Origin: Candidatus Hermodarchaeum yapensis
GTDB lineage: Archaea > Asgardarchaeota > Hermodarchaeia > Hermodarchaeales > Hermodarchaeaceae
Assembly (NCBI GenBank): GCA_016840405.1
Contig: JAEOSK010000004.1
Span: 1 to 64,000 of the forward strand
Direction: 5' to 3'
Length of the DNA stretch: 64,000 nt
This document shows, piece by piece, positions 4,838 through 59,294 of this stretch. Position numbers and translations under genes: made by a program. The notes under the pieces were generated by a model, which did no database searches, was not told the DNA's origin, and saw nothing but the letters and a program-made list of their open reading frames with translations. The stretch's first letter is position 1. The number at the start of each line of letters is the position of its first letter.

Positions 4838-4935
4838 TACAGCGTTTCTCTGTGTTATTTGTAAATATCTTGTGTTTCGAAGACGTATAATTGATCCTTG
4901 ACAAATGATGTGAAAGATGATTTGGATCACGTTGT
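4838..4935 (+). repeat. polarized intergenic repeat copy 1 (A+B)
   Basis: GTTATTTGT-N13-TTCGAAGAC (4876-4884), N22, GATGTGAAAGATGATTTGGATCACGTT. Confidence 0.8.
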
Positions 4936-5054
4936 CAATTCTTTCTGTTTCTAATTTTGAAGAAGGTAAAATGGAATGTTTTGGTTTCCGGAATTCCTAT
5001 AGCATAGACCAAGTTTAAATGAGAGATAATATTTGGGTGAATCAAACTATTTGA

Positions 5055-6329
5055 GTGGGGATTCCGATAACGTCCTTACATACCGTGATTGATGAACACC
5101 TGGTCCGGGCTCGCCGAGTTATCAAATGGGCAGCATTCGTTGTCATAGCCTTAGCAATTACCTGGTTCGTTGTTGCATTGCTATCAGGAAGTGTAGGATT
5201 ATTAGCTAAAGGAATTGATTCTCTCACGGATCTAATCGCTATCATCACGGTATTCCTTGGGCTTTGGCTTGCCCAACGATCCCCTAACCAAAAATATCCT
5301 TATGGGTATTTCAAGGCTGAAACCATGGCGGCCCTGATTGTTGCGGTGTTTGTTTTCATAACAGGATTGGGCGTGCTATGGCAGGCAATCCAACGTATCT
5401 TATTTCCAACCGATTTGAGCTTTCTCATACTGGCGTTAGTAGTATCCATTGCTTCAATCCCAATCATCTTTCTGATGTCATGGTATCTGAAAAAAGTGGG
5501 TCGAGAAACCGGTAGTAATGCGGTATATAATACGGGTCAGGAATTTCAAATGGATATTCTGGCCTCGATCGCTGTCGTTTTAGGTTTAATCTTTGCATTG
5601 TTCGGATTTCCATGGGTTGAGCCCATTGTGGGATTTATAATAGGCCTTTTCATCTTGAGAAGCAGTTTCCAACTGATTTTTGAATCAGGACTCATTTTGA
5701 TGGATGCCGGTCAAGATCCTGAACAAATAACTGCCATAAAACAACTCGCCTTACCGATCCAGGGCGTCCTTGGTGTTCATGCGATTAAACTTCGAAGAGC
5801 AGGACCCATTTGCTTTGGAGAGATGCATCTAGAAGTCCCTGGCAAAACAACTGTCTTCCAATCACATCTTTTAGCTGAAGAAATCTCTAGACGGATCAAA
5901 AACGCATACCCCGATGTACTAACCTTTCTCGTTCATGTTGAACCCGTTTTACCCGTCACATTCCGTGTTGCATTCCCAGTCAACCAACCAAAAGCGACTC
6001 CAGATACGAAACCAAACACGCACTTTGGATCCACCCCGTATTTCTTAATATTAGATATTGACAAGCGGAAGATTACCCTTTGGGAAACAATGCCTAACCC
6101 CTTCGCAAAAGAATTGAAAAAACGCGGGAAACACACGGCACATTTGTTAATTGATGCTAAAGTTGAAATTGTATTTGTGGATAAAATGGGGGAGACACCA
6201 CTAAGCATTTTGCAAAACCATTTAATTCACGTCTATCAGCAAAATTCGCAGGCTAGTTGCCGAAAGAACATAGAAGCTTATCTTGAAGATGAACTGGCAA
6301 TTCTCAAAGCAAAGGAGAAAGTCCTTTAG
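5055..6329 (+). CDS. cation diffusion facilitator with C-terminal NifX/NifB-like domain
   Basis: DSLTD in TM2, YPYGYFKAE, cytosolic LVHVEP domain, then HFGSTPYF..NP.. tail. Confidence 0.85.
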   Translation: MGIPITSLHTVIDEHLVRARRVIKWAAFVVIALAITWFVVALLSGSVGLLAKGIDSLTDLIAIITVFLGLWLAQRSPNQKYPYGYFKAETMAALIVAVFVFITGLGVLWQAIQRILFPTDLSFLILALVVSIASIPIIFLMSWYLKKVGRETGSNAVYNTGQEFQMDILASIAVVLGLIFALFGFPWVEPIVGFIIGLFILRSSFQLIFESGLILMDAGQDPEQITAIKQLALPIQGVLGVHAIKLRRAGPICFGEMHLEVPGKTTVFQSHLLAEEISRRIKNAYPDVLTFLVHVEPVLPVTFRVAFPVNQPKATPDTKPNTHFGSTPYFLILDIDKRKITLWETMPNPFAKELKKRGKHTAHLLIDAKVEIVFVDKMGETPLSILQNHLIHVYQQNSQASCRKNIEAYLEDELAILKAKEKVL

Positions 6330-6336
6330 AGGATTG

Positions 6337-6388
6337 GAGCAAGCTGTTTTTCCTAGTGTTATCCGCTATTCTCCTTAAATTCGAAGAC
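6337..6388 (+). repeat. polarized intergenic repeat copy 2 (A only)
   Basis: GAGCAAGCTGTTTTTCC..GTTATCCGC-N13-TTCGAAGAC, 7 nt after the CDF stop. Confidence 0.85.
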
Positions 6389-6566
6389 CTCTCAGATTTT
6401 TGTAGATGCTACTTCTCACATATTTATCAATTATTAGTAAACATTTATACAGTTTTGTTTTTATTCAGTGCGGATTTGTGTTGTTTTTCGCGAACTTTAC
6501 GAGCAAAATTGAACTGTTAGGTTTCCGTAAATTAATAAGTGTATTTTGGTATAACATTACCGTAAT

Positions 6567-7676
6567 ATGGTAAACATTAAGGTGATAAATATGAAACCTA
6601 CCCGCTATGGGATTGCACTAATTGTTCTCCTTTCCTTCACGGCAATCACTTTCTCAGGAAATTACACGGGGTCGGGGATCAAACACCTTTCTTGGGATAG
6701 TGATTTCGTGTCGTCTTCTTGTACGATTTTTACGGCAGCGATTGACGATACAGTGCTTTTTGGAAATAATGAGGATTGCCCCCTTCCAGGTTCATATCTA
6801 TGGCTTATTCCTTCGCAGGTATTGCAGCTCTCCTCGGAAACTATTTCGATTCACGGTGCGATTTTTTTTGGGTTTGATGGCAATGATCATCCCAATGATG
6901 GGTATCCACAAGGAGGAATGAATGATCAGGGGCTTTGCTGTGACAGTAATGGACTTCCTAGAGCACCATTAAATCCGCATCTTGAGAGAGATTTGCCGTA
7001 TGCCTACCCTTTCTATGAGATATTATGGGATTGTAGCACCGTAAATGAAACAATTGAGTGGTTCGAGTCACATTATCTCGGATCGAGTTTACCTGGCCAA
7101 TTTCATTTTGCGGATGCGACCGGAGATGCCGTAGTCATTAGTGCGGGAACTAATGGAGAACTGGCTTATGCTCGTATAGGGAACACGACTCATCTAGTGT
7201 CGACGAACTTTAATCTCGCCAATTATTCGAATGGCGAATATCCTTGTGAGCGTTATCAAACCGCATGTTCTATGCTGGATGAGATTGTTTCTGAGGGTGA
7301 CTTAACCATTGAAGCATGTCGTGACATTCTGGAGGCTGTTCATCAAGAAGACGGAACGGCCTATAGTAATATCTTTGATCTTGTTAATCGAGATATCTAC
7401 ATCTATCAGAAGCACAACTTTAACGAAGTCATCAAATTAAATCTCGATGAGGAACTGGAATTGGTTGTGCCTGGAGCAGAGGGCGTGAGCAGCGAGAACC
7501 TAGTTCTTGTTAAAGTGATTCGAATTGGAGATCTCTTCACATCACCCATCACTCCATTCATCGGAACTCTACTTGTTGTGGTATGTCTATTTGGTGGAAC
7601 AATAGTGATTAGTGCCCTCGTGATACACTACATCAGAAAAAAATTCAAAGGAACCCCAAAGGAGAGCACGTTCTAA
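6567..7676 (+). CDS. membrane-anchored Ntn hydrolase (C45/choloylglycine hydrolase-like)
   Basis: Signal peptide, CTIF..LFGNNED nucleophile region, GGMNDQGL, STNF, C-terminal TM with basic tail. Confidence 0.8.
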   Translation: MVNIKVINMKPTRYGIALIVLLSFTAITFSGNYTGSGIKHLSWDSDFVSSSCTIFTAAIDDTVLFGNNEDCPLPGSYLWLIPSQVLQLSSETISIHGAIFFGFDGNDHPNDGYPQGGMNDQGLCCDSNGLPRAPLNPHLERDLPYAYPFYEILWDCSTVNETIEWFESHYLGSSLPGQFHFADATGDAVVISAGTNGELAYARIGNTTHLVSTNFNLANYSNGEYPCERYQTACSMLDEIVSEGDLTIEACRDILEAVHQEDGTAYSNIFDLVNRDIYIYQKHNFNEVIKLNLDEELELVVPGAEGVSSENLVLVKVIRIGDLFTSPITPFIGTLLVVVCLFGGTIVISALVIHYIRKKFKGTPKESTF

Positions 7677-7685
7677 ACATGAAAA

Positions 7686-7808
7686 TGTTGCTTTTTAAGA
7701 GTAGAGCAAGCAATTTTTCCTGTCGTTATTTGCTTCTCTGTTGAGGTTCGAAGACAAAGCTGCTGTTTCTTCCCAATGATGTGAAAGATGATTTGTTTCA
7801 CATCGTAG
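7686..7808 (+). repeat. polarized intergenic repeat copy 3 (A+B)
   Basis: GCTTTTTAAGAGTAGAGCAAG..GTTATTTGC-N13-TTCGAAGAC (7747-7755)-N22-GATGTGAAAGATGATTTGTTTCACATC. Confidence 0.9.
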
Positions 7809-7988
7809 AATCTGTTTTGGGTGATAAGTTTCTTCAAGATTTCTAAATCGATTTCAGGACTGGCGAATCGTTTATATCAGATTTTTTGGCAGGAATTATT
7901 TGGAGGGTTTGATGTCCGTATTTGACGATTCTTACTAAAACACAAGACTGTAGTCAGGGAAGAGCAAAATCTGGAGGCTGAACAAAAG

Positions 7989-9104
7989 TTGAACAAGAAA
8001 GGACTTTTCATTTTGGTATTACTGTTCTCAGTGATGTTCTTAGGAATTTCAGGTGTTACAGTTGCTGACGGAGATCCGTTCATATCCATTCAAAGCAATG
8101 TCGCATTTGCGTCTTATTTTGATTCTGGAAATGGAACGGTGAGCAATCCTTGGATATTAGAGAACAAATCATTCGTAGTTCAGAATATGTCTGAAATATA
8201 TTGTATACGAATCGAAGACACAACTGATCACTTCATTATCAGAAATTGCACCTTTACTGGATTTGAAGAAATTCAGGTTGAGGATGAAGGAACATATTAT
8301 CAATATCACGGTTATGGATTAACATTCAAGAATGTTACAAATGGCGAGGTTGATGACTGCCAATTCTACAATTTAGAGTATGTAGCTATGGCGGAAAATT
8401 GCCATAATATAAAAGTAAGTAACTGTGATGCGATTGGAACTTTGGAAGAAGAAGGGTATCAGTATGCTAAGGGATTAAATGTAGTCAATTGTACACAACT
8501 ATTTGCTTATAACAACACTATGAACTATCTCAGTTATGCACTAAGCGGCAGAGGAATCCAAGACTCAATAGCCACCAATAACACGGTGTATATGACATTT
8601 CATGGGTTTGATCTTGGAGACGATTGCGACAACAATACGCTGAAGTTTAACAGTGTAATCTTAGACAGATCTCACGATGTAAGTCCACGAATGGTATCAG
8701 GTGCAGGGGTAAAACAATCAGATATAATTGCAACTGGTATACAGTTTGGGGACAATTCAGAGAACAACGATGTACAATGGAACGATATTACAGGATTCGA
8801 TTACAACGGCATTGATGATGCAGGGAATATGTGGGATTACAATCTGTGGTCGGATTACTACGGTGAGGATGCTGACGAGGACGGTATCGGTGATACACCA
8901 CACACAATCGCTGGTACTGCTGAGTCAGTTGACGAACATCCAAGACTTTACACCCTTTCAGGAGAACCTTACACACCCCCTGCACGACCAACAACTCCAC
9001 TACCAATGATTCCCTCTGAACTCCTCATCGTTGTTACAGTCATCGTAGGAGTCAGCATTATTGCCCTGGTTGTCATTTTCTATCGAAAAAGAAAGGCACC
9101 ATGA
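7989..9104 (+). CDS. secreted right-handed beta-helix (NosD/CASH-like) surface protein
   Basis: Signal peptide, GNGTVSNPWILE, Asn-rich parallel beta repeats, NLWSDY.G.D.D.DGIGDTP, C-terminal TM. Confidence 0.8.
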   Translation: MNKKGLFILVLLFSVMFLGISGVTVADGDPFISIQSNVAFASYFDSGNGTVSNPWILENKSFVVQNMSEIYCIRIEDTTDHFIIRNCTFTGFEEIQVEDEGTYYQYHGYGLTFKNVTNGEVDDCQFYNLEYVAMAENCHNIKVSNCDAIGTLEEEGYQYAKGLNVVNCTQLFAYNNTMNYLSYALSGRGIQDSIATNNTVYMTFHGFDLGDDCDNNTLKFNSVILDRSHDVSPRMVSGAGVKQSDIIATGIQFGDNSENNDVQWNDITGFDYNGIDDAGNMWDYNLWSDYYGEDADEDGIGDTPHTIAGTAESVDEHPRLYTLSGEPYTPPARPTTPLPMIPSELLIVVTVIVGVSIIALVVIFYRKRKAP

Positions 9105-9142
9105 ATAACTAGCTAGTTTGTAATCAGTTCTTATCCAAGGTT

Positions 9143-9261
9143 GGGTTCTTTAAGAAACATTAAGCCGTTTTTCCGCCTGTTATACGCTGGTTTACCTTGC
9201 TTCGAAGACATACATGCAATTCTTAGAAAACGATGTGAACTCGTTTGTTTCACATCATTAG
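9143..9261 (+). repeat. polarized intergenic repeat copy 4 (A+B, B core 9 nt)
   Basis: GTTATACGC-N13-TTCGAAGAC (9201-9209)-N22-GATGTGAACTCGTTTGTTTCACATC. Confidence 0.85.
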
Positions 9262-9336
9262 AAGAGAATTATTATTTTTTCTTCTTTGAAGAATAGGTTA
9301 AAATATTCAGTATTAGTTTAGTGGGTTGGTGAACCT

Positions 9337-9543
9337 ATGTCTAAAGGTGATATTCTCCTAACTGACGAGGATCGAGCATTACTCGTGAGGGTAAATAGCC
9401 TACTTGAAGAAATCATCGAGACTCTTGAAATCTTAGAAGATGATAATGCGATGAAATCCGTTGAAGAAGCTGAGGAAGATGTGAAAGCAGGAAGGGTGAG
9501 AGATTACGATGAATTCATCGAGGAGCTCAGAGGTTCTGATTGA
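9337..9543 (+). CDS. putative RelB/Phd-like antitoxin
   Basis: Acidic 68-aa protein with ETLEILED...EAEEDVKAGRV, typical of the C-terminal half of such antitoxins. Confidence 0.65.
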   Translation: MSKGDILLTDEDRALLVRVNSLLEEIIETLEILEDDNAMKSVEEAEEDVKAGRVRDYDEFIEELRGSD

Positions 9544-9700
9544 TTATACCTTTAGGATCACCCGCAGGTGAAACAGATTTCCGCATAGTACAATTTCTTA
9601 GACAAAATGGTTGCGAACTGTTACTTGAAGTAGAGGCATTTTCTGTGTTTTAAGGAAAAGTTTATGTATTACATTGTATTCTTTCTTGCCTGTGCTGAAG

Positions 9701-10003
9701 ATGACTGAAAAGAGCGCTGTGATAACTATGCGTCTTTCACGCCAAGAATTGGAGAGGATAGAAGCACTAAGGGCGCTCGAGGATGTTGACCGAACAACAT
9801 TATTGAAAGATTTTATTAAAGATGGGTTACACCGACGAGTCGTCCAGATCTATGAAAAAGGCAAACTGACTGCTTCCAAAGCAGCTGAGATACTTAATAT
9901 TTCACTACGAGAGTTCCTTGAAGTGTTGGAGAAGGAAGGCATTCCGATAAACTGGGATTCGGATAGTACGAGGGAGTATCTGGAAAAGCAATATGGGGAA
10001 TAG
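9701..10003 (+). CDS. UPF0175-family putative antitoxin
   Basis: RHH-like N-terminus plus YEKGKLTASKAAEILNISLREFLEVL; overlaps the PIN gene. Confidence 0.8.
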   Translation: MTEKSAVITMRLSRQELERIEALRALEDVDRTTLLKDFIKDGLHRRVVQIYEKGKLTASKAAEILNISLREFLEVLEKEGIPINWDSDSTREYLEKQYGE

Positions 10004-10547
10004 GCCTTTGTCCGTAACCGTATCCGATGCAGGGCCCCTAATCCATTTAGCTCAAATAAGCAAGTTACAGCTCCTTAAGCAGCTCTTCAAACGAGTACTA
10101 ATTACCTCAGGAGTTAGAAGAGAAGTCGTTGACAAGGGGATTAAACTTGGCTATGAAGATGCCCTCCTCGTCAAAGAGGCAATAGGAGAGGGATGGATAA
10201 TAATACAGGATATTACTGCGAAAGCTGCTTCAACGGCCAAAAAGCTAGCGGAAGGTGAAAATGTATCCACACTGGATGCTGAAGCGCTTTTACTTGCGAA
10301 GGAACATGAGGCAAAGAATTTCCTGGTCGATGACAAGATTCTCTCTAGCCTTGCAAAGATGTATGGATTTAATGTGTGGAATACCTGGACCATTTTATTA
10401 GAAGCCCTCAGTAAAGGCTTCATCGAACTCACGGACATAGAATCGGCAATCGACGAGCTAGGTGAGCAGAGACACAAGTTGAAAGCGGAACAAGCTGCTG
10501 AAATATTAAAAGCTGCGAAACATCTAGCATCACGAAAAAGAGATTAA
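9993..10547 (+). CDS. PIN-domain protein (DUF3368-like) toxin
   Basis: VSDAGPLIHLA, VRREV, DAEALLLA, LVDD. Confidence 0.85.
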   Translation: MGNRPLSVTVSDAGPLIHLAQISKLQLLKQLFKRVLITSGVRREVVDKGIKLGYEDALLVKEAIGEGWIIIQDITAKAASTAKKLAEGENVSTLDAEALLLAKEHEAKNFLVDDKILSSLAKMYGFNVWNTWTILLEALSKGFIELTDIESAIDELGEQRHKLKAEQAAEILKAAKHLASRKRD

Positions 10548-10590
10548 GAGCATTGGTATGTATCAGACCCCGTGCAATAAATTCCAAGAG

Positions 10591-10716
10591 TCTGGTGCTT
10601 TTTAAGGTTCGAGCAAGGAGTTTTCCCTGCTGTTATTGGCTTTTCTATTGAGTTTCGAAGACATATATGCTCTCCTTCATAAATGACGTGAAAGGTGATT
10701 TGGTTCACATCGTTAG
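10591..10716 (+). repeat. polarized intergenic repeat copy 5 (A+B, near consensus)
   Basis: TCTGGTGCTTTTTAAGGTTCGAGCAAG..GTTATTGGC-N13-TTCGAAGAC (10654-10662)-N22-GACGTGAAAGGTGATTTGGTTCACATCGTTAG. Confidence 0.9.
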
Positions 10717-10804
10717 TTACTGAAAGAAGTTAATCCAGTTGATGCTGAATCCGCGTATTTGTTCATCGTGGTATCTGCACGAAGACAAGTTGTCGTAGAG
10801 TGGT

Positions 10805-11746
10805 TTAGGGTTGAGGTTGGTAGGATAGTATTAGTTGGGTTTCTTCGACTTCTGGTTTTTGTTTGGCCAAAATGGATGCAGTTAATGAATTTGTTGAGAA
10901 GAAAATGGCTTCTCTTAATGGAAGATCGGTCCATCCTGCAGCTACAATTTCCTTGGCGAGTTCTATTAGCAGTCGTTTCCAAGCGTCTTGATAGCCTGGT
11001 CTGACGGCGCGGAATCTCATTATGATTCGTTCTTCCTTTCCTCTGAGAAAAATGCCATCGGGTTTCAGCCTGAGGGGGGCACTTGCGGCAACGACTTGGT
11101 CTCCTTTGAAAACCATTACGGCGTGGCCGTCTTTTAGAACTCTGTCTTTAAAATAGCTCTCCCACGCTTCTTGGGTTGGGAAGGCATTTCGTACGTTGGA
11201 ATCAGCCTGGCAGACTTCAATCAGCCGATCAACATCTTTACTCGTGGCCACTCGACTACTAAAAGCACTGATATCTTTGGTTAGTTTCCATCCACTAACC
11301 TCCGTAACATCATAGTCAAGGGCATAGAGGAACACCCTTTCTTTCTCGGTGAAGCCTTTCTCTTTGAAAAACCGGATTTGCTCTTCCGCTATCTTTGACG
11401 ACCAAGCCACTCCGGTAGTGATTTCTTGGATTTTTTCATTACGTTTGATGTAGCTAATTAGGTCCTTGAAAAGCTTCCCCTGGACATCGGAGGGGCATCC
11501 GTGTAAAGACCAGGGATAACCCATGCCAATCGTCCAAGGTTGGGACTCAGAGCCACTTGCTGAAATGTAGGCGAGGGGGTCGTCTTTTTCAGTGAATGCA
11601 AACCGCATCAGTTTTGGATCACTATTTAGTGCCTGCACTCTGATTTGGTCCGCGGTTGCGGGAAGACCCGAAGCTGTGGTGTAAATCTTTGCCCTTATTT
11701 CTTCTAAGTTCTGCTCTGGTTCATAATGACGATAAATGACTTTCAT
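10805..11746 (-). CDS. hypothetical protein, probable tandem GNAT fold
   Basis: Two GNAT-like halves (FFKEKGF; AVRPGYQDAWKRLL). Confidence 0.6.
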   Translation of the reverse strand: MKVIYRHYEPEQNLEEIRAKIYTTASGLPATADQIRVQALNSDPKLMRFAFTEKDDPLAYISASGSESQPWTIGMGYPWSLHGCPSDVQGKLFKDLISYIKRNEKIQEITTGVAWSSKIAEEQIRFFKEKGFTEKERVFLYALDYDVTEVSGWKLTKDISAFSSRVATSKDVDRLIEVCQADSNVRNAFPTQEAWESYFKDRVLKDGHAVMVFKGDQVVAASAPLRLKPDGIFLRGKEERIIMRFRAVRPGYQDAWKRLLIELAKEIVAAGWTDLPLREAIFFSTNSLTASILAKQKPEVEETQLILSYQPQP

Positions 11747-11994
11747 GTATTATCAACCTCCTTGGCGACCGTCTTAAAGACAGCCATTCTTAAGATACGG
11801 GCATTATGTATCACGAATGGCTAAAACAATCTCAGGTATTGAGAAGATTAATTTCTACAGTTATAAAAACATGATGAAATCGGATGCATATTATTGTCTG
11901 AAAAACTGCGAACTCCACTATTGCTCCTTTTCATCGGAACCTTTCTTTCAATTGAAGATAACAAAGGTTAAATTACATTCAATCTCGAAGCCTG

Positions 11995-12813
11995 GTGGAG
12001 GTACCTGAATTGAATAATTCTTCGTCTGAAGATGAGCTGAAGCCTAAAACGTGGGGTGGGTTTTGGGATATCTTTGGTGAGGTTCTTGTTGACCTCTTAG
12101 ATATTCCGGAGGGGCAGCGTGTTTTGGACATTGGCACTGGTGGGGGTTCAGTGCTCTACCCCCTTTCGAAAAAAATCGGCGCACCGGGACGTGTCATTGG
12201 TGTCGAAACGTGTGATCATTGTGTGAGAAAAACCAATGCGGAAATCAAGCGATGTAAGATTGGCAATTCAGTTGTGCACAGCATGGATGCGCGTGAAGCG
12301 GATTTCGAGGACCACTCGTTTGATTGCGTCACAGCCGGATTCATTGGGTGGGACGATTACTTTGACTTTCAGACGCTTGAGTACAAGAAACCCGATGAGC
12401 TGATGGGGGCAATATGTAGACTTCTAAAACCTAAAGGGACATTTGGCATGAGTACGTGGCTCCTACAGGAGGATCTGGATTGGATGTATGGGTTCCTCTC
12501 AGCGCAGTCAATTGAGTGCAAACGCAATTACCATGTTGAGAATGAGAAAGGATGGAAAAAGATTCTATCAATAGCCGGATTCCAGAATATACACGGTTAC
12601 ACCCGACAGGCTTCATTCACTTATGATACTCTTTATTTCTGGTGGAAAGAGATGATGGACTATAATTGGCCGGTTACCGGCATAAACAGTGATGTGATTA
12701 CTGAATCCATAAAGGCAGCAGCGTTTGAATCATTACAGGGGCGGTTGACGGAGACTGGCGGAATACCCTTCAGGCGTGATGCCCTCTTTGTGATTGCAAT
12801 CCGCCAGGCGTAG
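11995..12813 (+). CDS. class I SAM-dependent methyltransferase
   Basis: VLDIGTGGG, MDA, FDCV, RLLKPKG. Confidence 0.85.
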   Translation: MEVPELNNSSSEDELKPKTWGGFWDIFGEVLVDLLDIPEGQRVLDIGTGGGSVLYPLSKKIGAPGRVIGVETCDHCVRKTNAEIKRCKIGNSVVHSMDAREADFEDHSFDCVTAGFIGWDDYFDFQTLEYKKPDELMGAICRLLKPKGTFGMSTWLLQEDLDWMYGFLSAQSIECKRNYHVENEKGWKKILSIAGFQNIHGYTRQASFTYDTLYFWWKEMMDYNWPVTGINSDVITESIKAAAFESLQGRLTETGGIPFRRDALFVIAIRQA

Positions 12814-12947
12814 CTCACTATGAAGCCATATTTCCTGGCAAATCAATTAAACTAGATGAATTATTCCCGTTATAGACTTGAATTTCAGTTAGTTTTGGAA
12901 GGCTTTTATTCAATGTTCACGCATGCCTAGCTGGAGGGTCTAAGGTA

Positions 12948-13826: not shown

Positions 13827-13859
13827 GCACTAAATTCGTCTAGTCATCAATTCGTGAAG

Positions 13860-13959
13860 AAAACAATTTTTCTGTGTTACCGGCTTTTTAACAACTATTC
13901 GAAGACGTATTTTTCTTCTAGATCGTATCATGTGAAACAAATCCTCCTTCACGTCGTTT
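13860..13959 (+). repeat. polarized intergenic repeat copy 6 (A+B with inverted B core)
   Basis: GTTACCGGC-N13-TTCGAAGAC (13898-13906)-N22-CATGTGAA-ACAAATCCTCC-TTCACGTCGTT. Confidence 0.85.
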
Positions 13960-13994
13960 GAAAGAAATAGTAAGTAAACCAAACTTGGCGCGAT

Positions 13995-49665: not shown

Positions 49666-49777
49666 TATAATCTTGGAAGAAGATGCAATATTGTTAGTGG
49701 GGTTTTTAGACTAATTTTAAAATCAGGATTTTCTTCAACATTTTCACTTGTGCCTCTGTTCGCTTGTCTTCATCCTG

Positions 49778-50785: not shown

Positions 50786-50888
50786 TTTATCATTCTTCAC
50801 GTTTATGTTAATCTGATAACTATCAAACATACATTTTTTCTTATCATTGAACCATCGGCCGGCAATTTCATTAGCACAATATATCTTA

Positions 50889-50997
50889 TTAAGATTAGAG
50901 TAAACGGTTTTTCTTTGATTTATGTGCCATTCTCTCGGGTTTCGAAGACATATGTGCAATTCCGATCAAATGACGTGAAAGATGATTTGGTTCACAT
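50889..50997 (+). repeat. polarized intergenic repeat copy 13 (A+B)
   Basis: TTAAGATTAGAGTAAACGGTTTTTC..TTTATGTGC-N13-TTCGAAGAC (50941-50949)-N22-GACGTGAAAGATGATTTGGTTCACAT. Confidence 0.9.
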
Positions 50998-51060
50998 TAA
51001 AAACTTCTAAAAATCCTTCGCCGAAGATACTAGCAAAATGCTTAGCGTGTTCTTCAAATC

Positions 51061-52167
51061 TTATGATTGCAGTTCCATGGTTTCTCTCAGCCTTTTCCCC
51101 CGTAGAGCATTCATTTTGTTCTTGATTAAGCTTAGACCAACAATTTTTCGGTCGAAGGAAATGGTCATTTGAGGTGAAAGATATGTGATGCTAGCACTGC
51201 CAATGGCATCGGGAAATTTTTCGCGATAATTCTCTTCCCACCTAAGATGACTTCCAATGCTATGGTGGTTTCCAAAGAGTAAGATGTTGTATTTTCCATG
51301 GAGGACTTTGTAGCCTATCGGAATGTAAGGATCTTGAACAATCTCACGAATGATCTTTTCTTTAGACTTTTTAATTTCAAATAGTGAATAGGTCAATACA
51401 TAATTTGGTGGTACAAAATAATTAGGAAAACGGCAAATCGGGGTAGCGAGTATATTCTTTTTTAGTAGTGATGCTATCCGCTTTTCAACCGTCTTTCGAT
51501 GTAATCCAGTTTTTTCACATAAAGCAGCGTAGTTGGCTTTAATTCCATTTCCATCAACTAATTGTTTCATGATTTCGATATCGACAATGTCGAGGGGGTG
51601 GCCATTTAAAGTCAGTTCACCCTTCGCTTTGAAATCGCTCTCAATGAGATGAATTCCGGAGTTGGGGTCGTATTTGATTATACGTTGATTCGAAAAATAA
51701 GTCGTGCTCGAATTAAAATTCGCACCTTCCTCAGAGAGCCCATATTGCGATTTTAATATTGAAGGTAATGATTCCATGTAAATTTGGAAGTTTGTGATGT
51801 CTTTATGATAAACGAACAGTATGGTATCATAGTCTCCTTGCCGTGAACTAAAAGCTGCGAATATATATGGATCCTCTTTTACCCAGTTCTCGAATTTTTT
51901 TCGATCCTGTGGCGTTTTCGGTAGGTCTAATTGTAGATCAATGAGTAGCGGATAGTATTGATAAAGACCGGGGAATCTAAAAACGGGGCGATCGAGAATT
52001 TTATGATTAAAGAGTTTTTCAACTTTTTTCCTAATAGTATTTCTGTGTTTACCAAGAGCTCTTGAAAGATTGCTGAGGTTGACATTTACAGCCTCACCAG
52101 ATACCAGACTTTGCATTAGTATCAGATCTTCTTCATTCTTTAGTAAATTTGACATAATTTCACGCAC
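51061..52167 (-). CDS. tandem-duplicated Lrp/AsnC-like regulator
   Basis: Two HTH units (LSRALGKHRNTIRKKV; LCEKTGLHRKTVEKRI), each followed by a RAM-like GDYD/GKYN segment. Confidence 0.75.
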   Translation of the reverse strand: MREIMSNLLKNEEDLILMQSLVSGEAVNVNLSNLSRALGKHRNTIRKKVEKLFNHKILDRPVFRFPGLYQYYPLLIDLQLDLPKTPQDRKKFENWVKEDPYIFAAFSSRQGDYDTILFVYHKDITNFQIYMESLPSILKSQYGLSEEGANFNSSTTYFSNQRIIKYDPNSGIHLIESDFKAKGELTLNGHPLDIVDIEIMKQLVDGNGIKANYAALCEKTGLHRKTVEKRIASLLKKNILATPICRFPNYFVPPNYVLTYSLFEIKKSKEKIIREIVQDPYIPIGYKVLHGKYNILLFGNHHSIGSHLRWEENYREKFPDAIGSASITYLSPQMTISFDRKIVGLSLIKNKMNALRGKRLRETMELQS

Positions 52168-52410
52168 TTTAAGCCAATATTAATATCTTTTTCGTAATAT
52201 TATATCAACTTTGTCATTATTCGTTGTTGATTATTATCTTATCAAATATGAATATTATTTGAACAAATGTGTCAATTATGTCATTTCTCTTTGCATAATA
52301 GTTAATCTATTTTGTATTTTTTCTCAAAAATTTGTAATCTATATTTAATAATATCTATTCTTCAATTTATAATCAGAGCAAACACAAAAATTGTAAAAAA
52401 GGTGTTTATA

Positions 52411-53625
52411 ATGGAACAAACGGTTGTTGATTTACAGGAACAACGAATTTCCGTACTTGATGATTTGCTCGAACAAGTAAACGTTACCAGCCTTCTAGAT
52501 TCTTGGGGACCAGAGAAGGTCATCCAAGTCTATGACCCTAAAATTAAGATGGAGGGGATCCTCGTAATTGATAATACGGCGCGGGGTCCTGGTAAAGGAG
52601 GATTTCGAATTAGCAGTGGTGTCACGCCTACCGAGGTCTTTAAGCTCGCGAGAACAATGACATGGAAATGCGCTTTAGCGGATCTTCCATTTGGCGGAGC
52701 AAAGGGTGCAATTAATGCAGATGCTTATTCGATTGATAAAATTCGATTCGTGAAGACTTTCGCCAGAGCTGTTTCCACTTTTTCACCCGATCAATGGGTG
52801 GCTGCTCCAGACATGAACGTGGGTGAGAAGGAGATTGAAGCGTTCGTTGAAGAAATCGGTAGTATGAAGGCAGCGACGGGGAAACCTGAACGCCTTGGAG
52901 GAATCCCTCATGAACTTGGTACTACAGGGTTTGGAGTGGGTGTATCAATTGAATCCACCTTGGAGGTTCTCAGTAAAACGGTGACAATTCAAGAGACACT
53001 TGAGAACCTAAAAGTCGTCATTCAGGGCTTTGGCAATGTTGGCTCAGAACTCACTAAGTATTTGGCGAATAGAGGCGCGCGGATTGTAGGCATTAGCGAT
53101 TACTGGGGGGCAGCATATAACCCGAAGGGAATCGATGCTTCAAAAGCGTTGAAACACGCCTATGCCTGCGATGAAGCTCATTCTATTAAGGGATGTAAGG
53201 GTGCAACTGCAATTGCCAGAGATGATGTCACTTATTTGAATTGTGATATCTTGGTTCCGGCTGCGATATCAAATGTCATCACAGGCCAAAACGCCTCGAA
53301 AATAAAAGCGAAACTTGTTTTTGAAGCTGCAAACAACCCAACAACCATCATAGCAGAACAGACCCTCTTTAAGAGAGGAGTCTTAGTCATTCCCGATTGT
53401 ATAGTGAATGCGGGTGGGGTTATCGGTTCCTATGTTGAGTATATCGGGGGGAGTCCTGATGAAGCCTTCGCGATGATTGAAGCGAAAATCTCACAAAATA
53501 CACGTAAAGTGCTGAAAAGCGCAATCAACAGCGATACTATCACATTACCACGGGCCATGGCGATGAAGATTGCACAAAAACGCGTTTCACAAGCAATGCA
53601 TCGACGAGCAGGTCAAGAATTATAG
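52411..53625 (+). CDS. Glu/Leu/Phe/Val dehydrogenase
   Basis: GPGKGG, MTWK, PFGGAKG, APDMN, QGFGNVG, EAAN, NAGGV. Confidence 0.92.
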   Translation: MEQTVVDLQEQRISVLDDLLEQVNVTSLLDSWGPEKVIQVYDPKIKMEGILVIDNTARGPGKGGFRISSGVTPTEVFKLARTMTWKCALADLPFGGAKGAINADAYSIDKIRFVKTFARAVSTFSPDQWVAAPDMNVGEKEIEAFVEEIGSMKAATGKPERLGGIPHELGTTGFGVGVSIESTLEVLSKTVTIQETLENLKVVIQGFGNVGSELTKYLANRGARIVGISDYWGAAYNPKGIDASKALKHAYACDEAHSIKGCKGATAIARDDVTYLNCDILVPAAISNVITGQNASKIKAKLVFEAANNPTTIIAEQTLFKRGVLVIPDCIVNAGGVIGSYVEYIGGSPDEAFAMIEAKISQNTRKVLKSAINSDTITLPRAMAMKIAQKRVSQAMHRRAGQEL

Positions 53626-53652
53626 AGAATAATCTGGAATGGAGGTGAAAAA

Positions 53653-53937
53653 ATGGAAATTAAATTAGTTAGAATCCTACAATGCCTAGATCGATCCTCT
53701 TCGGGTTGTCCGCTAGGTCACATAACACGACATACGAATATCCCTGAGCCATTAAGTCTCCTCGACATCTTGGAAGAAAATAATCTTGTTCAACGCTGTT
53801 CATGTGATGGATGGTCACCTACTGGTCATCCACAATTTGAGATTACATCAAAGGGTTCTCAGAAGCTAAGAGAGATTGAAGCTTCCAGTATTCATATTCC
53901 GATTCGCATTTTAGAAAAAGCTTATGTGGGGCATTAA
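53653..53937 (+). CDS. small wHTH-like protein
   Basis: GGAGGTGA RBS; LLDILEENNLV..FEITSKG. Confidence 0.6.
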   Translation: MEIKLVRILQCLDRSSSGCPLGHITRHTNIPEPLSLLDILEENNLVQRCSCDGWSPTGHPQFEITSKGSQKLREIEASSIHIPIRILEKAYVGH

Positions 53938-54149
53938 TTCAACGCTTCTGAGAAGTGTTCGAAAATACGCATAAGCAGTAGTCTTGGGCGATGAATTATA
54001 TGACGAGGGGGCTGTGGATCCTCCCTTCGGCGAATTGTCAACTACCACTAATTGTAATCTATAGCTTGTATATCGCATCCTGTGATACGGGTTCCTAGCA
54101 ATGGTTGTTGCCATCGCTGGTTGAGCAACGGGAGAGGATTGAAGTCCCC

Positions 54150-54581
54150 TCAATCATGTTTGTGAGTGAGTTTGATGCTTAGTACTACGCCGCAGCTAGA
54201 ACTGAATTTCTCTCCACCTTGCAATAAAGCACCACATGTAGGACAAGTCGTCAATACTTGTTGGTTGGAAACTCGAGTACGGGGACGGTTTTGAGTGGAT
54301 AGAGACGATTGTGTTAGAGCTTACGTGCGGCGATCGTGGATGAATCCTATAACGAAATAAATGGAACAAACGATTAGAAGGAGAACGAGTACCGTGACCG
54401 CGCCAACTATTGCCACAAATGGGTCGAGAAGGGGAGATAGGGACCATGATCCGTAAAATTCAAGGAACAGGTAGAAGCGTATGAAGGCAATAACGATTAC
54501 TACGAGCCTGCATTGACAAAGATAACTCCTGAGCTTTGCGGAGAGAGTTTTATCTTCATTTTCAACACTCAAGTACCCCAC
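54150..54581 (-). pseudogene. TM + zinc-ribbon protein interrupted by an in-frame TAA
   Basis: The 2-TM ORF continues in frame past TAA 54323-54321 into CPTCGALLQGGEKFSSSCG, stop at 54150. Confidence 0.55.
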
Positions 54582-54676
54582 CCAACTTCAAGTTGAAGTG
54601 AAGCCTTCTCATGCGAAATGGTTATGACGTCCTTAGTTAATTGGTGTACGAGATAATTTGTGCAGGAGACTGACTG

Positions 54677-55228
54677 ATGCCCCGACGTCCAAAGTATAAA
54701 ATTGAAAATGTAGTGGCAAGCGTAGAAGTTGTTGCAAAAATCGACCTTAACCTGTTAGTTCGTAAGCAAAAAGATGCGGAATACAACCCTGAACAGTTTC
54801 CAGGGTTGATGCTTCGGATCAAGAATCCGAAGGCCACCATCCTCGTGTTTAGCAGTGGTAAAATGGTGATCACCGGATTACGCAGAGAGACTGAGGCCGA
54901 GGCAGCTGTTGAAAAAGTCGTTAGCAAGATTCGAAAGGCAGGCATTACCGTCACAGGCAAGCCAAAAATCACCATCCAGAATATTGTGGCCAGTGGTGAC
55001 CTTCACAGCCGCATCGATCTGGACCTGGCTCAAATGACGCTGGAACGCTGTCTTTACGAACCCGAAGTCTTTCCCGGACTCATCTACCGAATGAAGACAC
55101 CAAAGGCAGTTTTTCTCATTTTTAGTAGTGGTCGAATTGTGTGTGCTGGCACGAATAAAGAATCCATTACGAAGAAGTCCATCTACCTTCTTGCAGATCA
55201 CCTGCGGGAATTAGGACTCATCGAGTAA
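54677..55228 (+). CDS. tbp: TATA-box binding protein
   Basis: IENVVAS, YNPEQFPGL, LVFSSGKMVITG, repeated in the second half. Confidence 0.97.
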   Translation: MPRRPKYKIENVVASVEVVAKIDLNLLVRKQKDAEYNPEQFPGLMLRIKNPKATILVFSSGKMVITGLRRETEAEAAVEKVVSKIRKAGITVTGKPKITIQNIVASGDLHSRIDLDLAQMTLERCLYEPEVFPGLIYRMKTPKAVFLIFSSGRIVCAGTNKESITKKSIYLLADHLRELGLIE

Positions 55229-55322
55229 TAGTGCTCCATTGAATGCTCCCACATCGACGTTCTCCACGACTGAAGCCGAGGGAGTTCTCGCTGCCTACTC
55301 TAAAAAAATCAGCAACCGTTGC

Positions 55323-55374
55323 AGCAGGACATTTTTCGGGGTGTGATCTGCCCCACGTTACGAATATCGAAGAC
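55323..55374 (+). repeat. polarized intergenic repeat copy 14 (degenerate A)
   Basis: AGCAGGACATTTTTC..GTGATCTGC-N14-ATCGAAGAC. Confidence 0.55.
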
Positions 55375-55455
55375 GTTCCTGAAATGTTTACACCTATGGA
55401 GAATTAATCCACAGCTGCTTATATTAAACCGAGATCTCTGCTCCTTCGGTGATAG

Positions 55456-56226
55456 ATGGTGAACAACAGCATCTGTATCAAAACCGAAGGCTTGACGAAA
55501 ATCTTTGGGTCCGTTCAAGCCATCAGAGAGCTCGATTTAGAGGTGAAATCGGGTAGTCGATTTGGTTTTTTAGGTCCGAATGGGGCTGGAAAGACCACGA
55601 CGGTTCGCATTCTCTCAGGGCTCTTAAAACAGACGAGTGGCACTGGCACGGTCTGTGGATATGACGTATCTACCCAGCGTAATTCGATCAAGGCTGTAAC
55701 GGGTCTTCTCCCCGAAACACCTGGCCTCTACTCCAAGCTTTCTGCCGTGGAGTTCCTCGAGTTTATTGGAGCCCTGAATGGTCGTAATGGAGACTCGCTG
55801 CATCAGCGGATTGACCGCCTTCTGGCCATTCTGGGACTGGAAGGTCGCCAAGAGGATTTACTCGAGTCATATTCGTCTGGGATGAAGCAAAAGGTTCTCA
55901 TGGCTTCGACGTTACTGCATGATCCGCAACTCGTGTTTTTGGATGAACCAACGTCACGTCTCGACCCCGCGGCTTCAGCTCTAGTAAAGGATTTGATACT
56001 CCTTCTCGCCGAGGAAAATGAAACGAGCTTTTTCATCTGCACGCACATTACCAGCTTCGCTGAGGATGTGTGTGATGTAATTGGTATTATCAATGAAGGG
56101 CAATTAGTGATCGTTGATTCGCCTCATCAAATAATTGAATCAACAAAAACGAGGAATCTTGAAGAAGCGTATCTCAAAATCGTCGGTGGCAAGGTCGACC
56201 GCCAGACCTTACTTACATGGAGGTAG
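55456..56226 (+). CDS. ABC transporter ATP-binding protein
   Basis: GPNGAGKTT, YSSGMKQK, FLDEP, CTH. Confidence 0.92.
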   Translation: MVNNSICIKTEGLTKIFGSVQAIRELDLEVKSGSRFGFLGPNGAGKTTTVRILSGLLKQTSGTGTVCGYDVSTQRNSIKAVTGLLPETPGLYSKLSAVEFLEFIGALNGRNGDSLHQRIDRLLAILGLEGRQEDLLESYSSGMKQKVLMASTLLHDPQLVFLDEPTSRLDPAASALVKDLILLLAEENETSFFICTHITSFAEDVCDVIGIINEGQLVIVDSPHQIIESTKTRNLEEAYLKIVGGKVDRQTLLTWR

Positions 56227-57917
56227 CGGAGATGGAGTGTAGATGGCTTCAGATCGCGAAGGCAGAATTTTTCGTCTTGACTGCGAGATTCAAGGGTCAC
56301 CGGAAACTCTTCATGGGCTTAGTGCTTAGCCTTGGATTGCTCTGGGCAGTTTATTTTGCCCCATTAGTAGTGGGGCTCGTGATGGAGGTCCTTACTCCCA
56401 TAACGCCAATTCGTGTAATTCTCCAAGTCATGTTTCCGGGGCTGATGCGTGCAGTGATGCTATTACTGTGGATGCTTCTCCTTATCATCCCCTTAGGTCA
56501 GGCACTTTCAGAGATTAAGATTGGGCAATGGGAGATTCTCCTTGCCAGTAATGTCACAACCCGCGATATCCTCGTTGGAACCTTTCTTGGCAAGATACCT
56601 AGCTATACGTTGTACGTCCTTGTTTTGGCACCACTCTTACTCTCACCTTTTCTACTTGCCCTTCAGGTCTCGCTTCTAGGGCAGCTACTAATTTACACAA
56701 TCCTTACACTGATGATTCTGACCATTAATTGGCTGTCCAACATCATTTGTGCGGCTCTTCAAGCAAAACTAGGTGAGTCCTCACGCGGTAACGATATCGC
56801 CAAAGCCCTCGCCCTGCTAATGGGTTTGATAGCGATTATTCCAGTATTGGGTCTACAGCTCTTCGCCACTCAGTTCTCTGTGATCTTAGGGCTAAACGTC
56901 TTCTTGGTGTTTCCCTTCACCTGGAGTGCTGACCTCGTTAGCTGGCTCGCTATCACCTTCAACGGTATTAACCTTACTGCTTCACAAATAGCGCACTTTC
57001 AGAATGTCCTGCAATTCGATTTACTCACAAATGGGCTACTCATAGTGGTCTTCGGCGTGGTGTGTATTGGTATTGGTCTCCTATCCGCTGAACGTCTCTT
57101 TACATACCAGATAGGGGCGCGAAGCGAAACGGTGAGAACTGTAAAGCGTGAAAACATCCTTCTACGGGGTCTGCGAAAAATCAGTCCTAGTTCCTTTGGG
57201 TCCCTAGTAGTGACCTGTTTTAAGACCTTCTTCCGACAGGTTCAGAACCTCTCTAAGATCGCGATGGCACTTACCCTTTCAGTGATCCTGCCGTTTCTTG
57301 TGATTCTTGTATACGGACAAGGTTCTCCGATAACGTTGGACTCTCTTTTACCAATAACGGGATATGGTCTGGCATTTATGGGTATCATGGCTTTTAGCGG
57401 AACTTCTTTTCTTGAAAGCAAGGATCAGCTTTGGATGATCCAAGCAGTTCCACGGGGGACGTCACGGTTTGTTAAGGCTCGATTAGTAATAGCAGTTCTC
57501 ATTGCTTTACCGCTTAGTCTTATTCCCACAACTGTATTGACCATCATGATGGGGTTGGAGCTATTCCAATTCTTCTGGCTTTTCGGGTATGGCTACGCCA
57601 TGGTGTGCGGCGCTGCATTGTTCGGCACCGGAATCACAGCCTTGAATCCGAACTATGAGGACATAAAATCACCAGTATATACGACGAGTATGATGATCGC
57701 AAATATGATTTGCTTATTCGTTACTATGGCCAGTCCCTTCATACTCAGTGTCATCACAAGGTTCTTCATCGGCGTCTCTCTTGATACTCTTCTTGTGACA
57801 TGGGGTTTCTTGAGCGCAGGAGTCGGTCGAACAATAATCACAGCAGTATTTCTGCTGGTACTCGGTGCACTAGTTGTGTTGGTGGGAACTCGAAGGCTGG
57901 GTCGACCTGGCACTTAA
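56217..57917 (+). CDS. ABC-2 type multi-TM permease
   Basis: About 12-14 TMs in two halves, coupled to the ATPase. Confidence 0.8.
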   Translation: MEVAEMECRWLQIAKAEFFVLTARFKGHRKLFMGLVLSLGLLWAVYFAPLVVGLVMEVLTPITPIRVILQVMFPGLMRAVMLLLWMLLLIIPLGQALSEIKIGQWEILLASNVTTRDILVGTFLGKIPSYTLYVLVLAPLLLSPFLLALQVSLLGQLLIYTILTLMILTINWLSNIICAALQAKLGESSRGNDIAKALALLMGLIAIIPVLGLQLFATQFSVILGLNVFLVFPFTWSADLVSWLAITFNGINLTASQIAHFQNVLQFDLLTNGLLIVVFGVVCIGIGLLSAERLFTYQIGARSETVRTVKRENILLRGLRKISPSSFGSLVVTCFKTFFRQVQNLSKIAMALTLSVILPFLVILVYGQGSPITLDSLLPITGYGLAFMGIMAFSGTSFLESKDQLWMIQAVPRGTSRFVKARLVIAVLIALPLSLIPTTVLTIMMGLELFQFFWLFGYGYAMVCGAALFGTGITALNPNYEDIKSPVYTTSMMIANMICLFVTMASPFILSVITRFFIGVSLDTLLVTWGFLSAGVGRTIITAVFLLVLGALVVLVGTRRLGRPGT

Positions 57918-58083
57918 TTTGAATAAGGAGGAACAAAGCAACTTTATACAGGCTACAACTCCTGTAGACTTTGAATCGGTCATGACCTTTCATACCGGTT
58001 CATCGTCTTCAGGAATATACTGGTCAATGAGTGAAATGGATTTCCGAATGAAGCTGTTGGTTGATGGAAGGTGAACGAGTGGA

Positions 58084-58815
58084 TTGAAACAGGCGGAATT
58101 CAGTGCAAACGGTGTACTTAGTAGTCAAAGAGAGCTGTTACCACGGTTGTATCAGAGCCATCGCCTTTTCGTAATTAACTTCTTTGCCTCACTATTGATG
58201 GTTCCTCTCTGGTTTCTCTGGGTAATCTTCTTCGCAGCAGTGATTGCAGAATCTTTTCAGTGGTTTCTCCTAATAACTGCGCCAATATGGATTGCAATAC
58301 CACTTACTGTTTTTATTTTTGGATATAGCGGGAAAGCATTTTTTGTTTATATGCGATCTGCAAAACACTTCTTAGATAATGCAAAAGTGGATGTCAATGC
58401 CTCTAGGACTGCTGAAGATTTCACTACGTATATGAATCTCCTTTTCCCAGTTCTTCTCCCTTCGATGACATCGACACCCAATTCTACGCAGCAAGAACAG
58501 GAGCGAATCCACAAAATAATTCGAAACTTAAAGAGGGCACCGATCATAGAAGGGGCGATTCTTGGAATCCTTATCTTTAGCTTTGTCAGTTTCTTCGTCA
58601 GACATCCGTATCTCCTTCCCCGCCTTCTTCTTACACTGATTATTCCATTTCTCTGTTTCAACTTCGCTATTATGGTAATCCGACTTGGAATTTTCCTTAG
58701 GTGGCGACAATATGTTAGCCGCTGGCTGAATCTTTATGACAGCCTCACCACTTGGCAGGCAAATCTTGAGTTAAAAATCCAACAAAACGCGAACAGTATC
58801 CAGAGGGAGATTTGA
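58084..58815 (+). CDS. hypothetical membrane protein
   Basis: 4 TMs in two pairs. Confidence 0.65.
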   Translation: MKQAEFSANGVLSSQRELLPRLYQSHRLFVINFFASLLMVPLWFLWVIFFAAVIAESFQWFLLITAPIWIAIPLTVFIFGYSGKAFFVYMRSAKHFLDNAKVDVNASRTAEDFTTYMNLLFPVLLPSMTSTPNSTQQEQERIHKIIRNLKRAPIIEGAILGILIFSFVSFFVRHPYLLPRLLLTLIIPFLCFNFAIMVIRLGIFLRWRQYVSRWLNLYDSLTTWQANLELKIQQNANSIQREI

Positions 58816-59255
58816 TGCCAAAAACATCTACCGCCTCTGATAAAACAAGTTACAAGGCACCTCGTCGAGGGAAATTCGAGATATGGTCAGCATTATTAGA
58901 AGCGTGTCTTCGAATCCCGCGAACACAAAGTTGGCTCATGCGGAAAGTTGGCCTCAACACAGCTACCGCCAAAGAAGCACTGAGTAGTCTCACCAGGGGA
59001 AGACTTCTTGAGCAAGAAAGTGAACCCAAAGTGGGTATTTTTGAATATAAGACCACTGAGAAAGGAAAAGCCGCTCTAGCCCAATATTACCAACTAATTA
59101 CATCCTTCTTCGGAACCAGCCACAAAAGCCGAGTGAAGCAATATATGATCGTCTTGCTTTTCGCCCTCTCCTCTTGCTTTGTCTATGGGCAAATCGTTTT
59201 TCGGCAAGTGTACAGTTTCCTTGCAGGGGGAGACTCGGATCATACTCCTATTTGA
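58812..59255 (+). CDS. archaeal wHTH predicted transcriptional regulator
   Basis: RRGKFEIWSALL..TQSWLMRKVGLN..YKTTEKG. Confidence 0.75.
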   Translation: MMPKTSTASDKTSYKAPRRGKFEIWSALLEACLRIPRTQSWLMRKVGLNTATAKEALSSLTRGRLLEQESEPKVGIFEYKTTEKGKAALAQYYQLITSFFGTSHKSRVKQYMIVLLFALSSCFVYGQIVFRQVYSFLAGGDSDHTPI

Positions 59256-59261
59256 AAAATA

Positions 59262-59294
59262 AATTTTCGTGCAATTCTTTTGAATTTCGAAGAC
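59262..59294 (+). repeat. polarized intergenic repeat copy 15 (truncated A)
   Basis: TGC-N13-TTCGAAGAC (59286-59294) directly abutting the GNAT stop codon. Confidence 0.6.

Follow-up and report, generated by a model that had tools for sequence, protein, structure and literature searches.

Integrons are the textbook system of modular gene capture, and their IntI and attC parts are, to our knowledge, shared by the archaeal examples described to date. Canonical attC-based integrons and clusters of attC sites lacking integron integrases (CALINs) have been described in archaeal metagenome-assembled genomes (MAGs), including those of Asgard archaea (Ghaly et al., 2022; PMC9668308). In the dif modules of Acinetobacter plasmids, the boundary is a 28-bp site that consists of two 11-bp arms and a 6-bp spacer (11-6-11) and that alternates in orientation (PMC6449649; PMC13141974). 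In the arrays of integrative mobile elements exploiting Xer (IMEX) at dif, the boundary itself is a 28-bp 11-6-11 site, and the single-recombinase system XerS uses difSL, a site of 31 bp with an 11-bp central region (PMC5357621). For archaeal XerA, the only known role is the resolution of chromosome dimers at a single site (Cortez et al., 2010; PMC2958812). No description of a role of XerA in cassette capture was found in the literature searched. Here, an intergenic repeat is analysed that occurs in 15 copies in a contig stretch of 64,000 nt from Candidatus Hermodarchaeum yapensis (JAEOSK010000004.1, positions 1 to 64,000; hereafter the window). The repeats are best explained as the joints of a chromosomal gene-cassette array that was probably built by site-specific recombination in an 8-bp core, with the tyrosine recombinase XerA as the likeliest enzyme; from comparative sequence analysis, a probability of about 0.7 is assigned to this reading. 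A full-text literature search (Asgard, integron, cassette, Hermodarchaeia) returned no description of the element.

The source genome (G000) is a MAG of 2.7 Mb in 77 contigs that is 86% complete. All genomes compared, including the congeners labelled G002 to G014, are metagenome-assembled, with completeness of 72–91%. An earlier note on this DNA had listed 15 intergenic copies with the pattern GY-N13-(T/A)TCGAAGAC, had placed them in two accessory zones only, and had interpreted them as possible traces of an integron-like cassette capture system that is not of the attC type. A motif search and an nhmmer profile both reproduce this census. WTCGAAGAC occurs 17 times in the window compared with 1.3 times expected by chance (shuffles). 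The 15 listed copies are all present at their listed coordinates and all lie on the + strand (15/15), and the two further matches (8211, +; 58906, −) fall within open reading frames (ORFs) and lack the flanking blocks. The pattern itself is right, with GC as the GY dinucleotide at −16/−15 and N14 in the copy at 55366. When the profile built from the copies was run over the whole G000 assembly, it recovered the 15 window copies and three copies on contig C9, all in the + orientation, with zero copies at 22.8–47 kb of the window and zero elsewhere in G000 beyond C9. The element is thus restricted to array regions and is not found among the genes of the syntenic core block. The 15 copies occupy two islands (about 4.2–22.8 kb and 44.5–61.3 kb) on either side of a conserved chromosomal block.

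From left to right, the element is composed of a left arm, the invariant TCGAAGAC, a linker of ~20 nt (RTA..TGC..TT) and, in about half of the copies, a 31-bp palindrome, which gives a full site length of ~60–105 bp. The palindrome is formed by the arms ATGAYGTGAAA and TTTCACRTCAT around 9 nt (11-9-11). In the window, linker and palindrome are present in seven of the 15 copies (4876, 7747, 9201, 10654, 13898, 49605 and 50941). These seven copies run ~50 nt further than had been proposed, which refutes the fixed right end of the earlier description. A genus-wide logo was compiled from 91 junctions on 18 contigs, taken from 20 array stretches fetched from nine congeners, and is numbered from the T of TCGAAGAC. 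Its left arm shows TTTTTc at −34 to −29, GTTAT at −23 to −19, GC at −16/−15 and TTcT at −12 to −9; TT, the essentially invariant TCGAAGAC and aTA..TGC..Tt..T follow. The blocks recur each 10–11 bp without a 3-base periodicity, which suggests that the site is protein-binding DNA rather than a coding remnant. Concerning the upstream blocks noted before in the window, the spacing of ~10–11 bp is kept genus-wide, and TTTTTAAG and GAGCAA mark only one subfamily, to which about 8 of the 15 copies belong. A short motif, TA-N3-GC-N2-TT, is directly repeated at −21 and +9. Nearly all copies keep the core unchanged, whereas the remainder of the element drifts.

The palindrome was observed in 47 of the 91 junctions, where it nearly always begins 25–34 nt past the core T. 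Its spacer is 9 bp long in 32 cases, 10 bp in eight, 7 bp in four, 8 bp in three and 6 bp in none, and the commonest spacer is GATGATTTG. No dyad symmetry past the TTCGAA hexamer was observed around the core in the logo. RNAalifold, applied to both strands, yielded a 10-bp stem within the 31-bp palindrome as the sole consensus fold and nothing in the left ~90 nt. In junction 6, the palindrome (13927–13957) is inverted, and a solo palindrome (19140–19170) lies 190 bp after junction 9, which suggests that the palindrome acts as a module separable from the core. A decayed junction, in which the core has changed to GTAGTAGAC, is located ~45 bp upstream of an intact one in G014:C32 (~5155 in repeat orientation), and a similar arrangement occurs in G007:C66 (~189–250). 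The decayed and intact junctions are separated by a left arm alone and resemble an 'empty cassette'.

A sequence-only covariance model was used to survey the genomes. The model detected the element in 13 of 14 congeners, whereas four sister-genus genomes and 42 further genomes of the phylum gave no hit. All junctions on a contig have a single orientation, which holds for each of the 18 array contigs and their 91 junctions. The genes next to the sites lie on either strand relative to the site (88 to 75). The earlier claim that the repeats point the same way whatever the strand of the neighbouring genes is therefore borne out well beyond the window, and the orientation is constant within each array. 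The TTCGAAGACRTANNTGC pattern, which is too loose for this purpose, gave single chance matches only over viral and metagenome contigs, of which one 1.6-kb contig may be real.

The cassettes between the repeats are reshuffled between genomes, and the joints fall within the repeat. Among 3274 scorable junction pairs from different genomes, 18 have only the downstream cassette in common, 17 have only the upstream cassette in common, and 0 have both. Break-points were mapped by X-drop extension from the shared side. Counted from the T of TCGAAGAC, seven of the 13 upstream-shared pairs end at +7 to +11 and seven of the 11 downstream-shared pairs begin at −5 to +1, so that 14 of the 24 mapped break-points lie inside a window of ~12 bp. 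In the pair alignments, the left arm goes with the upstream cassette to −1 and the linker goes with the downstream cassette from +8. Break-points and alignments meet at the invariant 8-mer, which points to an exchange point within it. In one junction trio, the break between two members falls at the palindrome spacer, suggesting that the palindrome may be a second, less-used exchange point. Junctions with mutated, decayed cores also exist, and the junction counts are therefore conservative. The comparison between strains that the earlier note had proposed, namely whether modules are reordered with break-points in the repeat, thus has a positive outcome across species, with 35 one-flank pairs and no two-flank pair.

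Cassettes are also exchanged laterally. The CitMHS cassette (window 17052–18950) matches G010:C19:12332-14233 from core to core with 97% identity. Cassette-scale matches of 1.2–4.1 kb between G000 and G007, G010, G012 and G014 are 81–97% identical, and the full range over the cassette matches listed is about 68 to 97%. Cassettes shared between species show 72–97% identity, with core genes at about 70%. Compared with these values, the conserved block beside the arrays is only 67–72% identical to species outside the G000 lineage. The cassette identity exceeds that of the flanking block, which argues that at least some cassettes moved laterally between species recently.

These observations suggest the following mechanism. 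A cassette would span one TCGAAGAC to the next, carrying the linker (often with the palindrome) at its 5´ end and the phased left arm at its 3´ end; a circularised cassette would consequently rebuild one complete site of ~60–105 bp. Strand exchange would occur inside the invariant, asymmetric 8-bp core. Exchange at this position would explain the invariance of the core, because the partners need an identical sequence, and also the strict polarity of the arrays. The reaction would be carried out by the host XerA tyrosine recombinase or by a partner recruited by XerA.

Among the alternatives, the one that survives best, although we consider it improbable, regards the repeats as intergenic regulatory punctuation (archaeal terminator or promoter modules) and the shuffling as a by-product of homologous or microhomology-mediated recombination with no dedicated enzyme. 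The T-run at −34 to −30 and the TATA-like TTTTTAAG in one subfamily could serve archaeal transcription. No identical stretch shared by the copies is longer than the 8-bp core plus the TT and TA beside it, and microhomology would likewise favour it; some break-points lie outside the core, and the island borders lack it. Against this alternative, the repeats ignore the strand of the neighbouring genes and are missing from all other intergenic regions of G000. Equally against it are the clustering of 14 of 24 break-points in ~12 bp of an element of ~60–105 bp that is only ~60% conserved, a core that hardly varies among the copies as the rest drifts, and the movement of cassettes between species.

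The reshuffling data also bear on a second alternative, a miniature non-autonomous transposon that inserts strand-specifically in intergenic DNA, either a palindrome-associated element of the IS200/IS605 or repetitive extragenic palindromic (REP) type or a miniature inverted-repeat transposable element (MITE). The element recalls the left end of IS608 in having one strongly conserved hairpin ~27 nt from a fixed, possible cleavage sequence, and its orientation is strict. Insertion into conserved DNA would preserve both flanks; none of the 35 flank-sharing pairs does so, and each half of the element has been inherited together with a different neighbour. Copies are confined to the arrays instead of being dispersed, the hairpin is single, and the ends of the element are not inverted repeats. 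No Y1 (HUH) transposase (PF01797) was found in G000 (86% complete). A match to the end of a known insertion sequence or MITE had been named in the earlier note as evidence that would overturn the cassette interpretation; no insertion-sequence or MITE architecture was recognised, and no Rfam family matches the element. Taken together, these results make a transposon origin highly unlikely.

Alternatively, each element could encode a small non-coding RNA, or a cis-acting leader RNA, that is transcribed from its own promoter and ends in the hairpin. A TATA-like block is located ~25 nt upstream of the conserved part in some copies, and the sole consensus structure is a 3´ hairpin in which G-U pairs are better tolerated on the + strand. 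This block is missing genus-wide, however, and the hairpin itself is missing in half of the copies. Neither structure nor covariation was observed outside the hairpin, Rfam gave no match, no tRNA was found in the window, the sequence of the hairpin loop is conserved, and the arms are identical to those of the xerA-linked DNA site, so an RNA function is given very little weight. Just as little is given to a stack of displaced gene ends, in which repeated insertion into the end of one conserved gene would each time have brought a replacement end: many copies have an open minus strand (MKQIIFHVI...ICLRN...CSNLKK), with ATG in one C9 copy at the position of GTG in others, but a coding origin was rejected because the junctions show 10–11 bp block spacing and no 3-base periodicity genus-wide, tblastn with the peptide found no master gene in G000, the putative frame crosses the crossover and takes its halves from different cassettes, and the arrays occupy loci that differ between species and have no common flanking gene.

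Returning to cassette joints built by site-specific recombination, XerA is the leading candidate for the enzyme, as judged from its sequence and its linked site. G000 encodes two tyrosine recombinases (C16:6331-7275 and C53:4215-5186 (−)). The C16 protein scores 274 bits on the NCBIfam model NF040815 (recomb_XerA_Arch; cut-off 220), and its closest solved relative is P. abyssi XerA (PDB 4a8e, E = 5e-54). xerA is present in 13–14 of the 15 genus genomes and is the only widely conserved recombinase found; it was not found in the four sister-genus genomes. The arms of the array palindrome are equal to those of a putative dif-like 11-6-11 site upstream of xerA, and XerA is a candidate enzyme because of this match. 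In 9 of 10 genomes examined, the 10 kb upstream of xerA contain this site (arms ATGAYGTGAAA/TTTCACRTCAT), which is 3.0–4.2 kb from the gene in eight genomes and 9.5 kb from it in G011. It was found by probing with the palindrome arms, and a generic search for perfect 11-bp inverted repeats gave nothing usable. The chance rate, estimated roughly from base frequencies, is ~6e-4 per 10-kb region. In the cases open to judgement, it occupies an intergenic position immediately before an N-acetyltransferase-like gene. Two copies of the site occur in G000 (C16:17-44 and C16:3178-3205), 6.3 and 3.1 kb from xerA on its upstream side, and eight other congeners have equivalents upstream of the gene. The intervening 3.1 kb in G000, with around six small genes, might represent a module bounded by Xer sites.

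No integron integrase was found in the 86%-complete G000, where the best score on the IntI model TIGR02249 is 152.8 bits compared with a cut-off of 265 and belongs to the C16 protein. Likewise, no serine recombinase, no Y1 transposase and no Cas1 was found in this assembly, and the Pfam and NCBIfam scans revealed no recombinase among the cassette proteins. An IS110-type transposase was rejected because it occurs sporadically (3 of 19 family genomes). The C53 integrase was also rejected as the array enzyme; the 5´ extension of its ORF reads through a tRNA-like sequence, and it probably belongs to an ordinary element that integrated at a tRNA gene, on a contig of only 5.3 kb.

Several observations weigh against a cassette array built by XerA at the core. 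The palindrome is separated from the main crossover by 27 bp, has a spacer of 9 bp and never 6, and is missing at 44 of the 91 junctions. The flanks of the core are not inverted repeats, which a canonical tyrosine-recombinase core site would need. A few break-points are found elsewhere, at −28, −70, −90 and +31, the outer borders of the islands do not contain the core sequence, and the genes have no strand bias relative to the site. XerA orthologues with 35–47% identity are common elsewhere in the phylum, in Asgard lineages without the repeat, and the co-occurrence of XerA and the repeat therefore counts as one evolutionary event. A dedicated enzyme could also have been missed in MAGs of this completeness. 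A more specific version of the model is put forward tentatively and is, in our estimation, rather doubtful. It would be a 'Xer-integron', in which the housekeeping XerA, recruited by the 11-9-11 palindrome and the phased, half-site-like repeats, would capture, excise and exchange cassettes at the adjacent 8-bp core. Such a system would have evolved independently of IntI/attC and would move core cell-biology genes (TATA-binding protein, cold-shock proteins, leucine-rich-repeat protein) between species.

Compared with the known systems, the array exhibits both similarities and discrepancies. Like sedentary chromosomal integrons and CALINs, it has co-oriented, genus-typical sites that delimit small, mostly single-gene cassettes, including toxin-antitoxin pairs. 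The cassettes are reordered between genomes and exchanged between species, the joints lie at a fixed point of the site, and the recombinase gene is located outside the array. In contrast to an integron, the array has no IntI, neither an attI nor a cassette promoter (Pc) was identified, and there are several array loci. The site lacks the R''/L''-L'/R' imperfect palindrome and the GTTRRRY box of attC; only the 31-nt hairpin folds, and the crossover appears to lie in TCGAAGAC. The cassette genes also lack the strand bias of integron cassettes, and the median cassette is 1.9 kb. The polarity, the reshuffling, the break-points in the core and the missing attC fold and IntI all support the earlier suggestion of a cassette capture system that is integron-like and not attC-based.

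The Acinetobacter dif modules and the IMEX at dif resemble the array in that accessory modules bounded by sites with host Xer-type arms (putative ones in the array), and served by no dedicated integrase, are shuffled between replicons or species; here, too, the host encodes a Xer-family recombinase. The joints of the array are not 11-6-11 sites, however. About half of them have an 11-9-11 palindrome, placed 27 bp rightward of the 8-bp core; this core is asymmetric, is not framed by inverted arms and contains most break-points, and all sites are co-oriented. XerS/difSL and XerH/difH likewise combine a single Xer-type recombinase with an atypically long site, and the total length of difSL is that of the 11-9-11 palindrome (31 bp). 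They differ in being single chromosomal dimer-resolution sites beside the recombinase gene and not multi-copy cassette joints. The likeness to archaeal XerA/dif consists in a candidate that passes the XerA model and in a genus-wide 11-6-11 site linked to xerA. With no IntI, no attC and joints that are not 11-6-11, the array belongs to neither the integron nor the dif-module/IMEX family.

The left accessory island (4162–22768) comprises 18.6 kb of cassettes in G000, and the right accessory island spans positions 44522–61274. The repeat-free conserved block between them (22769–44525) lies outside the array and encodes an opp transporter, hydantoinase A/B, 3-hydroxyacyl-CoA dehydrogenase, a 1619-aa protein and others. 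Positions 22769–44493 are syntenic on long repeat-free contigs in at least 10 congeners. The 1619-aa ORF (36858–41717, −) has no Pfam or NCBIfam match. A lone, conserved gene of ~250 aa beside oppF (N-terminus MPFFYRRK...), which tblastn did not find in G000, takes the place of the left island in G012, G014, G011 and G003. The flanks of the right island (44.4–44.5 kb and 61.27–61.31 kb) are only 24, 156 and 284 bp apart in G011, G014 and G003, respectively, indicating that this island is an insert between two convergent genes. G002, which is ~90% identical, lacks window positions 45965–59982. The empty or shorter sites of relatives thus indicate that the islands are inserts between conserved genes. 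No shared chromosomal anchor was observed; the array flanks of other species map to differing G000 contigs, and no attI-like anchor was found. Small GTPases are typical Asgard 'eukaryotic signature' genes, and two of them flank the islands, a Ras-family gene (1129–1653, +) and an Arf/Roc-family gene (61275–62123, −).

All junction elements are on the + strand. In the left island, junction 1 (4831–4935) contains the left arm, the core TCGAAGAC at 4877–4884, the linker and the palindrome at 4905–4935. Junction 2 (6335–6402; core 6381–6388) has no palindrome. The palindrome is present in junction 3 (7702–7806; core 7748–7755, palindrome 7776–7806), in junction 4 (9156–9258; core 9202–9209, palindrome 9230–9258 with a 7-bp spacer), in junction 5 (10609–10713; core 10655–10662, palindrome 10683–10713) and in junction 6 (13853–13957; core 13899–13906), where its orientation is opposite to that of all others. 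Junction 7 (15967–16034; core 16013–16020) lacks a palindrome. Junctions 8 (17006–17073; core 17053–17060) and 9 (18896–18963; core 18942–18949) form the left and right joints of the CitMHS cassette, and the solo 31-bp palindrome past core 9 is likewise on the + strand. Junction 10 (22618–22685; core 22664–22671) closes the series of joints in the left island; the oppF stop follows ~100 bp later, and G002 and G005 have this joint at the same place.

In the right island, junction 11 (47214–47281; core 47260–47267) is followed by two junctions with palindromes, junction 12 (49560–49666; core 49606–49613, palindrome 49636–49666) and junction 13 (50896–51000; core 50942–50949, palindrome 50970–51000). 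Junction 14 (55320–55388; core 55367–55374) is located directly 3´ of a cassette-borne TATA-binding protein (TBP) gene. Junction 15 (59241–59308; core 59287–59294) is the most diverged copy, and the core of its counterpart in G012 is decayed.

The inter-core spacing has a median of 1.9 kb, and about half of the cassettes contain a single gene. The genes between the copies are mutually unrelated. They encode a cation-efflux protein, a methyltransferase, a luciferase-like oxidoreductase, octopine-type dehydrogenases, a CitMHS transporter, an aldo-keto reductase, a glutamate dehydrogenase, ABC ATPases, helix-turn-helix regulators and a TBP paralogue. Toxin-antitoxin cassettes, which are also typical of sedentary integrons, are represented by a UPF0175 and PIN-like pair (9674–10547) and an MNT (Polbeta) and HepT pair (16082–16946). 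A cassette ORF of 1076 aa (19186–22416, −) has no Pfam or NCBIfam match. The TBP gene in the right island (54677–55228, +), directly before junction 14, is complete and is one of three TBP genes in G000, in which sigma-70 was not found; both observations mark the host as an archaeon. TBP segments with 87–92% identity occur in the array contigs of G010, G013 and G014, which suggests that a basal transcription factor travels as a cassette. A gene for a 67-aa cold-shock-domain protein (60807–61010, −) is located in the outer right island, past the last recognisable joint. Its paralogues (about 77–81% nucleotide identity) were observed on C9 and, in at least six other species, on contigs that carry arrays.

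The array therefore shares the logic of integrons, with a different site and no integron enzyme. If the proposed reading is true, cassette platforms evolved more than once. Asgard archaea are the archaeal group closest to eukaryotes, and the array would provide a concrete route by which Asgard species rapidly exchange accessory genes by lateral transfer, among them paralogues involved in transcription and signalling. A function of archaeal XerA other than chromosome resolution would also become testable. With core and palindrome defined, substrates for biochemistry are directly at hand, as is a search key for such arrays in metagenomes.

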